Origin: Escherichia coli 042
GTDB taxonomy: Bacteria; Pseudomonadota; Gammaproteobacteria; Enterobacterales; Enterobacteriaceae
Reading direction: 5' to 3' (one strand)
Length of the DNA stretch: 64,000 bases
NCBI RefSeq assembly: GCF_000027125.1
Contig: NC_017626.1
Under the pieces are notes generated by a model. That model worked only from the letters and a program-made list of their open reading frames with translations, searched no databases and was not told the origin of the DNA. Below are positions 41,487 through 42,869 of the stretch, piece by piece. The position numbers were made by a program, and so were the translations under genes. How positions within the stretch are numbered: the stretch's first letter is position 1; each line of letters opens with the position of its first letter.

Positions 41487-42190
41487 AGAGTAAAACTCAT
41501 TAGGATTACCAGAATTCGGCCAATGCATTGCAAAAATGACATACAAAGAGAGATGTGTGCAGGCACTTAGCCGCGAGGGGCATGGCGAAGCCATACAGAA
41601 AGCACCAGCATTCAGAACTCCTGTGAAAGCGGCATAGTGGCCGCCTGTGCAGGAGTTTTGCTATGACCCGTATCGTGCTGAACGTTGCCACCCTATGATG
41701 CGATTAAAAAAACTCACCGTCGAGCCGATGATTGACGTCAATGCTATCGGATGATGCCGGGGGTGTTCCGGAAGGAATTCCTTGTTTCCCGAACTGTTAT
41801 CCACAAAATTATAACGATGAGCAAGTAAAGACCGGTTGGTGGCAGTACTGACCGGTCTGTGATGGAAGATTAATTTCACCTTAAATCCTGGTGCTGTTAG
41901 GATGCTGACGTTTTTCGGGTACACCATTCAGATTATGCAAATGAAGACCCAATCAAAAAATAAATATCCCTGAATATAATATATTTATAGCACCCATATC
42001 TCATCCTGGGCGATAACCAAACCATTTTTGATTAACAAATGAAACAACTGCAACAACTGCAACGTTCTTATTATTTCTGGAAAACATCTCGCAAAAACAA
42101 AACAGCATGCAAAAATCCGCTTTTTTTAAATGATTTTTCGGCGTAATTTTCGCACATACATTAATGAGTAATATATGTAAGGTATTGGTA

Positions 42191-42409
42191 ATGGCGATGA
42201 ATACGGTTTTTCTTCATTTATCAGAAGAGGCAATTAAACGGCTGAACAAGCTTAGGGGTTGGCGTAAGGTTTCACGATCTGCAATTTTACGCGAAGCGGT
42301 AGAGCAATATCTGGAACGTCAGCAATTCCCGGTGCGTAAAGCAAAGGGAGGCAGGCAAAAGGGGGAGGTAGTTGGTGTTGATGATCAGTGTAAGGAGCAT
42401 AAGGAATGA
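42191..42409 (+). CDS. yiiE: Ribbon-helix-helix (CopG-like) DNA-binding protein YiiE
   Basis: 72-aa product MAMNTVFLHLSEEAIKRLNKLRG... Confidence 0.75.
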   Translation: MAMNTVFLHLSEEAIKRLNKLRGWRKVSRSAILREAVEQYLERQQFPVRKAKGGRQKGEVVGVDDQCKEHKE

Positions 42410-42644
42410 CAAAAATTTTTCATTCTTGAATATAAAAAAACAGATGCCCTTATTCTGGTATTAATACAAGGCTGTTTTACTTGAACTTATAATAACTGCA
42501 ACTGTTACATCATATCTGGAAAACGCCTCGCAAAAATAAAAAATGATGCGTAAATGCGCTTTCTTTAAGCATTCGACAAGGGTACTTTTCTCGCCATAGA
42601 TTCAAAATGATATTGGCGAGATATATATGAACTCTCTGGCAGGT

Positions 42645-42869
42645 ATGGATATGGGCAGAATTTTACTCGATTTATCGAATGAGGTGATTAAGCAACTTGA
42701 TGATCTTGAGGTGCAGTGTAATCTTCCTCGTGCGGAGCTATTACGGGAAGCGGTAGATCAATACCTGGTAAATCAATCGCAAACAGCAAGAACCAGTGCT
42801 TTTGGCATCTGGCAAGGATGTGAGGAAGATGGTGTCGAATATCAGCGTAAGCTGCGCGAGGAATGGTAA
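42645..42869 (+). CDS. yiiF: Ribbon-helix-helix (CopG-like) DNA-binding protein YiiF
   Basis: Product [21 protein letters not shown]..., paralog of YiiE. Confidence 0.75.

Follow-up and report, generated by a model that had tools for sequence, protein, structure and literature searches.

The DNA analysed here is a 64-kb window of the Escherichia coli 042 chromosome, and all positions are those of the window unless another locus is named. The subject is the pair of adjacent genes yiiE and yiiF, which encode small ribbon-helix-helix (RHH) proteins, together with their 5' regions and the sequence that follows yiiF. An earlier note on this DNA had described the two genes as tandem RHH paralogues, each preceded by a diverged copy of the same upstream segment. 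As listed below, two repeat units are followed by the wreck of a toxin gene, and the locus is very probably a decaying chromosomal VapBC type II toxin-antitoxin (TA) locus, in which the antitoxin gene and its 5' region were duplicated in Escherichia and the toxin was wrecked in this strain.

41954..42409, strand +, repeat unit 1, the 5' region and yiiE (three in-register direct repeats and whole-unit alignment; left boundary tentative)
42043..42060, strand +, 9-bp tandem duplication, AACAACTGC x2 (single copy in K-12 and SCU-115)
42052..42129, strand +, upstream repeat, copy 1, the segment of the earlier note (78 nt, 77% identical to 42491-42568, z = 18)
42076..42096, strand +, 21-nt block, copy 1, TCTGGAAAACATCTCGCAAAA (the same block lies 5' of vapB in other genera)
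42191..42409, strand +, yiiE, 72 aa, RHH domain and degenerate VapB-like tail (Pfam RHH_1, E = 1.5e-11; RefSeq name yiiE)
42410..42869, strand +, repeat unit 2, the 5' region and yiiF (direct repeats and whole-unit alignment)
42491..42568, strand +, upstream repeat, copy 2 (direct repeat, shuffle-tested alignment)
42515..42535, strand +, 21-nt block, copy 2, TCTGGAAAACGCCTCGCAAAA (repeat and orthologue alignment)
42608..42626, strand +, altered remnant of the ancestral proximal promoter/repeat region, TGATATTGGCGAGATATAT, ancestrally TGATATACTGGAGGTATAT (ancestral form invariant in other genera)
42627..42869, strand +, yiiF, 80 aa, orphan VapB antitoxin orthologue (PDB 2K5J, E = 2.7e-45; 7BY2 chain A, E = 5.9e-30; syntenic orthologues in 54 species)
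42869..43163, strand +, vapC (PIN toxin) pseudogene (alignment to the intact vapC of E. coli 2016C-3878; tblastn, blastn)
42914..43053, strand unassigned, cluster of the repetitive extragenic palindromic/bacterial interspersed mosaic element (REP/BIME) type inside the vapC remnant (Rfam ES036, 45.8 bits)

The vapC remnant and the identity of YiiF and YiiE

The ATG of the vapC remnant, at 42869, overlaps the stop codon of yiiF by one base. Codons 9-30 were found at 43042-43105 and codons 101-124 at 43104-43160, followed by the stop at 43161-43163, so that the gene has lost about 70 codons and its reading frame is disrupted. The REP/BIME cluster exceeds the gathering score of Rfam ES036 (CssrF), which is 37.6, holds two sub-threshold naRNA4 matches, and is missing from the vapC-positive strain 2016C-3878 in the alignment. 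The cluster has short similar flanks, GATATCAAT at about 42881 and a GATACCAAT-like sequence at about 43040, which could be a target duplication.

In E. coli 2016C-3878, yiiE and yiiF are followed by an annotated VapC gene with a 1-nt overlap, and its product matched chain B of PDB 7BY2, 'Ribonuclease VapC', with E = 8.7e-63. RefSeq labels the adjacent gene VapC in some strains. At least 80% of vapC was kept in 57 of 5426 complete E. coli genomes; in strain MS14385, which has no yiiF, the order is yiiE, a 3' remnant of vapC, and fdhE. An intact, overlapping and co-directional PIN gene was thus absent from the window and present in 2016C-3878, in locus L061 (a Pfam PIN match) and in about 50 outgroup species.

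The outgroup loci came from a scan of one genome per species, which yielded 54 loci from other Enterobacteriaceae. The genera include Citrobacter, Klebsiella, Enterobacter, Kluyvera, Lelliottia, Yokenella, Pluralibacter and Franconibacter, and Salmonella diarizonae is also among them. All 54 loci have a single RHH gene and then a vapC homologue, with a vapC match of more than 100 residues in 50. The gene fdhE is convergent on the pair in about 51 of the 54 loci and fabY lies upstream in most, and the complete arrangement of fabY, vapB-vapC and convergent fdhE was found in most of the 54 species. Since this position is conserved in most of the 54 species, the module is old, chromosomal and syntenic. 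A plasmid origin was considered and rejected, as nearly all close homologues found in the plasmid collection belong to multi-megabase records that look like mislabelled chromosomes, and no close mobile relatives were seen there. The earlier note had stated that no toxin partner is adjacent; on the contrary, a vapC pseudogene begins at 42869, and the gene is intact in other E. coli and in about 50 enterobacterial species. As vapC is destroyed in the window, YiiF is left as an orphan antitoxin.

RHH-PIN modules, such as Neisseria FitAB and the RHH-type VapBC of Mycobacterium, consist of overlapping genes, and their antitoxin has an RHH N terminus and a tail that lies over the PIN active site; they are autorepressed at promoter-near repeats. 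YiiF stayed under the Pfam thresholds, but it is the protein of the solved structure 2K5J and matched over its full length the 'CopG family' chain A of 7BY2/7BY3, the partner chain of which is 'Ribonuclease VapC'. An N-terminal RHH DNA-binding domain was therefore recognised in YiiE (by Pfam) and in YiiF (by 2K5J and 7BY2). The VapB tail, G-x-W-Q ... D-G-x-E ... L-R-x-E-W, is invariant in the toxin-coupled homologues. YiiF retains its residues W62, Q63, D68, G69, E71, L76, E79 and W80, whereas the YiiE tail, GRQKGEVVGVDDQCKEHKE, has neither tryptophan, although the DNA there is 70% similar. Judged by these matches, yiiF is the true vapB (the downstream copy), now an orphan antitoxin gene, and YiiE is the product of the upstream, Escherichia-only copy, with the RHH domain retained and the conserved toxin-binding tail lost.

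The closest characterised system is the K. pneumoniae VapBC of 7BY2/7BY3 (Kang et al. 2020, J Med Chem, as cited in PMC11117207). YiiF is the orthologue of its antitoxin both by sequence and by the fabY/fdhE position (locus L030), the VapC of some E. coli strains matches its VapC, and the proximal promoter sequence is the same. Unlike K. pneumoniae, the window has a wrecked toxin gene, two copies of the antitoxin gene and an altered proximal promoter of yiiF. Other RHH proteins are more distant. The CopG/RepA plasmid copy-number repressors, namesakes of Pfam RHH_1, have the RHH fold in common with YiiE and YiiF, but the yiiE/yiiF genes have no plasmid replicon context and belong to an antitoxin lineage. 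YbfE, the 'LexA regulated protein' of NCBIfam NF008671, gave a weak RHH-level match (E = 0.003-0.012), and membership of its family was rejected at 16-18 bits, far under the 62-bit cut-off. In the literature searched, no paper ties yiiE/yiiF to vapBC; they appear only as uncharacterised predicted regulators, and one published table places YiiF in the AraC family.

The tandem duplication and its age

The upstream regions of yiiE and yiiF share a diverged repeat, as had been claimed. The repeat finder aligned 42052-42129 and 42491-42568 without gaps, and the local alignment of the upstream regions scored 70, compared with 20.2 +/- 2.7 (maximum 35) for 2000 dinucleotide-preserving shuffles. Nothing like the repeat core was found in the rest of the 64-kb window, where the next best score was 29. 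Moreover, the 3' ends of the two genes, 42354-42408 and 42811-42865, are 71% identical in DNA, and a possible extra piece at the unit starts, 41954-41979 against 42410-42435, is 73% identical. The three direct repeats are in register, with offsets of 456, 439 and 457 nt, and therefore the repeat unit is about 456 bp long and holds both genes.

Between unit 1 and unit 2, the identity of the non-coding DNA was 46% far upstream, 77% in the core and 43% in the proximal upstream part, and that of the coding DNA was 64% in the RHH part, 32% in the linker and 70% in the C-terminal tail. In the tails the DNA is still similar while the protein alignment is lost. Over 58 residues, YiiE and YiiF share 40% identity (E = 8e-12), and the N-terminal pattern L-x-L-S-x-E-x-I-K-x-L is indeed common to both. 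The pairwise alignments that the earlier note had proposed were thus both significant, and the reading of yiiE and yiiF as tandem paralogues, derived from duplication of an RHH gene with its 5' region, was borne out: the units are head-to-tail, colinear in non-coding and coding DNA, and absent as a pair from the outgroups. The AACTGCAAC-AACTGCAAC doublet at 42043-42063 results from a tandem duplication of 9 bp that, among the three sequences compared, only the window has; as K-12 and SCU-115 have a single copy, the doublet is not a general feature of the repeat. In K-12, a 19-bp deletion lies at the position of window 41936-41954. The idea that the far-upstream parts of both E. coli units are decayed copies of the LexA-box region of other genera (described below) was dropped at z = 1-2.4.

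The duplication had been called ancient, yet it is confined to Escherichia. YiiE homologues were found solely in Escherichia and Shigella, and each of the 54 outgroup loci lacks a second RHH copy. In E. fergusonii both genes occur but are separated by an insertion, and vapC is decayed. Across E. coli and E. fergusonii, the identity of the upstream regions was 0.75-0.79 for E-to-E and 0.86-0.89 for F-to-F comparisons, while that of E-to-F comparisons was 0.68-0.75, the same within and between species. Since the E-type and F-type regions group across species and the E-to-F identity is flat, the duplication predates the split of E. coli and E. fergusonii. Gene conversion or concerted evolution of the upstream copies was rejected, because the two types of upstream region are no more alike within one genome than across species. 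The insertions in E. fergusonii (L062 3406-5019 and L063 3406-3855) are opposite-strand genes, one of them DUF6708, and their place between the paralogues suggests that the spacer itself is an insertion hotspot.

Recombination between the units has also left hybrid genes. The hybrid proteins P0220, P0222 and P0209 join the N-terminal half of YiiE to the C-terminal half of YiiF, with the junction within the shared LREAV-x-QYL stretch; the hybrid yiiE'-'yiiF genes lie at 3001-3593 of L061 and at 3001-3225 of L064 and L065. The L061 hybrid sits directly upstream of an intact PIN gene, which suggests that the yiiE promoter region and RHH domain are good enough to restrain a toxin. From these sequences, the YiiE RHH domain may serve as the DNA-binding half of a hybrid antitoxin with a live VapC in some Escherichia. 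Between vapC-positive and vapC-less haplotypes (L001 against the window), the synonymous divergence (dS) of yiiF was 0.31, equal to the divergence of E. coli and E. fergusonii here, and the best match of the yiiE-yiiF region of the window among the 5426 complete genomes was just 97%. Two old haplotypes seem to be segregating at the locus, or one of them seems to be introgressed.

The upstream region and the 21-nt block

When the 5' regions of the orthologues were aligned, three conserved pieces were seen. The first is the 21-nt block TCTGGAAAGCnnCTCGCAAAA (TCTGGAAAnCnnCTCGCAAAA), which is the core of the repeat at 42076-42096 and 42515-42535; its TGG stands at -109 to -111 from the ATG in 42 of 53 loci, and it is near-invariant across about 40 species and their genera. 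The second is GTGTAT-n-TTG at about -60. The third is the invariant ATGATATACT, followed by GGAGG/AAGGTG and (G)ATATATG, and adjoins the start codon. K. pneumoniae yiiF is listed among leaderless mRNAs, with a start 4 nt before the ATG (Kim et al. 2012, PMC3415461, Table S4). This start follows GTGATATACT / ...GGTGATATACTTGAGGTA, which fits an extended -10 element, TGaTATACT. A consensus promoter scan of 41900-43250 gave no more sites than expected by chance.

Because the K. pneumoniae start is at the proximal extended -10, the core promoter belongs to the proximal part, which is 43% identical between the units, and the conserved repeat is a distal element. The repeat is found about 70-150 nt before the gene, and the 21-nt block about 86-106 nt before the mapped start. 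The claim of a duplicated operator/promoter is thus not supported: the 5' region was duplicated, but the segment that stayed similar is distal and not the core promoter. The proximal part of yiiF has changed: TGATATTGGCGAGATAT replaces the ancestral TGATATACTGGAGGTAT in all toxin-less yiiF alleles examined (the window, K-12, SCU-115 and E. fergusonii), and the vapC-positive E. coli allele retains the ancestral form.

In Buttiauxella massiliensis (L041) the block lies 5' of vapB in a locus with no fabY or fdhE match; since block and vapB occur together there, apart from fabY/fdhE, the block belongs to the module. SCU-115 has a third copy of the block beside an alpha/beta-hydrolase gene, followed by an inserted higB-like/nadS pair. 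At L002 2077-2679 (and also in L003, L061 and L064), a 103-aa open reading frame (ORF) and a NadS/HTH_3 gene directly follow the ancestral copy of the block; the pair in L002 looks like a higBA-type module, with the palindrome GTACGTCAATGACGTAC upstream.

If the upstream similarity were neutral and just left over from the duplication, or a functionless tract of gene conversion, one would understand why the 78-nt similarity beyond the 21-nt block is not common to other genera, and recombination between the units does occur, as the hybrid genes demonstrate. However, the core is 77% identical against 43-46% for the flanking non-coding DNA and 64% for the RHH coding part, the block is near-invariant in about 40 species at a fixed distance from the ATG, and the flat E-to-F identity gives no sign of conversion. 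We therefore consider a functionless repeat unlikely.

The block TGGaaaGcggcTcGCA has the GG-N10-GC geometry of a sigma-54 (-24/-12) promoter at a fixed distance from the gene. With a weight matrix built from 46 intergenic sites verified by chromatin immunoprecipitation (ChIP), however, the block scored 4.3-7.4 bits, while no verified site fell below 8.5 and their median was 16; after GG, all 46 verified sites have C or T, where the block has A; and ChIP-seq of K-12 sigma-54 detected no site at yiiE/yiiF (Bonocora et al. 2015, PMC4591121). A sigma-54 promoter is thus extremely improbable. As positive controls of the matrix, window 44592-44608 (-) and 18164-18180 (-) gave the best and third-best scores; they are the intragenic fdoI site (IS47) and the glnA promoter (OS37) of the same study, respectively.

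The block could also be part of a small upstream ORF, with the frame F-W-K-A-A-R-K, or of a structured leader RNA. In the window a 35-codon ORF at 42039-42146 spans the block, and an ORF of 38 codons is open in this frame in Salmonella diarizonae. In most of the 53 orthologous loci, though, no ORF that begins with ATG runs across the block, and in many a stop codon stands directly before it; RNAalifold on 36 sequences from the block to the ATG predicted zero conserved base pairs, and Rfam gave no match at the block. The probability left to either form is close to nil. The block was also compared by eye with the consensus sequences of CpxR, PurR, IclR/AllR, FadR, Cra and the marbox, with no formal test, and none fits. 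Our best guess is that the block is a candidate distal operator or host-factor site. RHH-PIN systems such as FitAB or the Mycobacterium VapBC are, to our knowledge, not described as having a conserved upstream block some 100 nt ahead of the transcription start.

Selection, decay and genomic setting

The two genes evolve differently. In the comparison of E. coli with E. fergusonii, the dS of the YiiE RHH domain was 0.23-0.32 and its nonsynonymous divergence (dN) 0.01, a dN/dS of about 0.04; the YiiE tail had dN/dS of 0.52. For YiiF, dN/dS was about 0.6 among toxin-less alleles (from small counts) and 0.07 in toxin-coupled orthologues, and the dN of yiiF to Citrobacter was 0.058 for the vapC-positive allele versus 0.13-0.15 for toxin-less alleles. 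Our reading of these rates is that YiiF drifts under relaxed constraint after toxin loss, whereas the strong conservation of the YiiE RHH domain indicates that it is still in use. At the outward-facing positions of the RHH beta-strand, assigned by the usual alternation, R11/L13/D15 of YiiF correspond to T5/F7/H9 of YiiE, and a changed DNA specificity of YiiE is plausible. This change from R/L/D in VapB to T/F/H in YiiE, together with the strong purifying selection, may mean that YiiE is neofunctionalised. As in other orphan antitoxins and decayed TA loci, the antitoxin has outlived the toxin and the toxin-less yiiF alleles are relaxed; unlike in those, there are two antitoxin-derived genes, and the DNA-binding domain of yiiE is under strong purifying selection.

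The course of events is read as follows. An RHH-PIN vapBC at the fabY/fdhE junction is ancestral to Enterobacteriaceae, and a segment of about 450 bp, the 5' region of vapB and vapB itself, was duplicated in tandem in the Escherichia lineage. In the window, vapC was destroyed by insertion of the REP/BIME cluster, by the loss of about 70 internal codons and by frameshifts. The core promoter is probably the proximal extended -10 TGaTATACT, giving a nearly leaderless mRNA, and the GATAT-type repeats that flank it would be the likely operator. YiiE and YiiF, as RHH dimers, would bind near their own promoters and repress them. The upstream repeat is the distal part of the ancestral vapB regulatory region, and the 21-nt block within it is a putative distal cis-regulatory site, either a second operator or a host-factor site. 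As a TA system, the locus would be inert in this strain.

Several points weigh against this scheme or parts of it. The mapped start rests on 4 reads from another genus. Between the -10 and the ATG there is a conserved GGAGG that resembles a Shine-Dalgarno sequence and would fit a second, upstream promoter; no such promoter was found. The autoregulation is drawn from general knowledge of RHH antitoxins, and the literature searched contains no DNA-binding, expression or toxicity experiment for the locus. Furthermore, the similarity of the far-upstream parts to the ancestral intergenic region is not significant (z = 1-2.4), and the left boundary of the duplication is uncertain.

The locus is set between the following neighbours.

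38267-39256, fabY (yiiD)
39633-41486, 617-codon ORF with a CX5R motif, within an AT-rich islet
43200..44129, strand -, fdhE, the convergent neighbour that anchors the synteny, followed by fdoIHG, also convergent

The 617-codon ORF is intact and carries the motif C-K-S-A-K-D-R (CX5R), which may be akin to that of the IpgD/SopB-type phosphoinositide phosphatases; the ORF gave no match in Pfam or NCBIfam. It is often annotated as split or beside a transposase, and in K-12 just about 100 bp of its 5' end are left, joined to a deletion. At 41615-41660 an inverted repeat, GAACTCCTG...CAGGAGTT, followed by TTTG, resembles an intrinsic terminator, and it is also present in strains that have nadS upstream instead of the CX5R ORF.

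It had been proposed that YiiE and YiiF, at the edge of the islet, could regulate this acquired gene, and one may go further and regard them as two stand-alone CopG-like autoregulators without toxin ancestry that control it. Both proteins do have the RHH fold, and the region is AT-rich; yiiE was 2.5-fold up on SlyA overexpression and was flagged as H-NS bound (PMC5797941). On the other hand, vapC remnants adjoin yiiF, and intact vapC is present in other strains and genera. Moreover, the cargo between fabY and yiiE varies by strain, being an alpha/beta hydrolase gene with a higB-like/nadS pair, HigB/HTH genes, the CX5R ORF or a CX5R remnant, and at least 80% of the CX5R ORF was found in 1061 of the 5426 E. 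coli genomes versus about 4140 for yiiE-yiiF. The proposed control of the CX5R gene has no support, and an origin of the two genes without a toxin is highly improbable.

Many Enterobacteriaceae genera have a well-conserved, near-consensus LexA box, CTGTATGGATATACAG, some 185 nt ahead of vapB (L015 2819-2834; L002 1865-1880; most of L006-L059). It was rejected as a vapB element, for it belongs to a divergent alpha/beta-hydrolase (Abhydrolase_3) gene, just downstream of the TATAAA -10 of that gene. This placement suggests that the Abhydrolase_3 gene is an unrecognised SOS-regulated esterase. The window has no alpha/beta-hydrolase gene there and no CTGT-N8-ACAG site.

The decay of a TA locus with an orphaned and duplicated antitoxin is a known process, of which the yiiE/yiiF locus is a new, well-documented example. 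Two further readings are possible but rather doubtful: that YiiE has become a neofunctionalised regulator derived from an antitoxin and, separately, that the 21-nt block is an undescribed distal control site of VapBC, either a looping second operator or a conserved host-factor site that couples the module to cell physiology. The identification of yiiE/yiiF as a decaying vapBC locus gives an evolutionary identity to two long-uncharacterised 'y-genes' of E. coli K-12, which also carries the vapBC wreck. Since the stages of decay, with vapBC intact, the toxin lost, yiiF lost, or yiiE and yiiF fused into hybrids, all occur in E. coli, the locus is a handy natural series on the death of a TA module and the reuse of antitoxin DNA-binding domains, and the conserved upstream block offers a small, sharply delimited regulatory puzzle.

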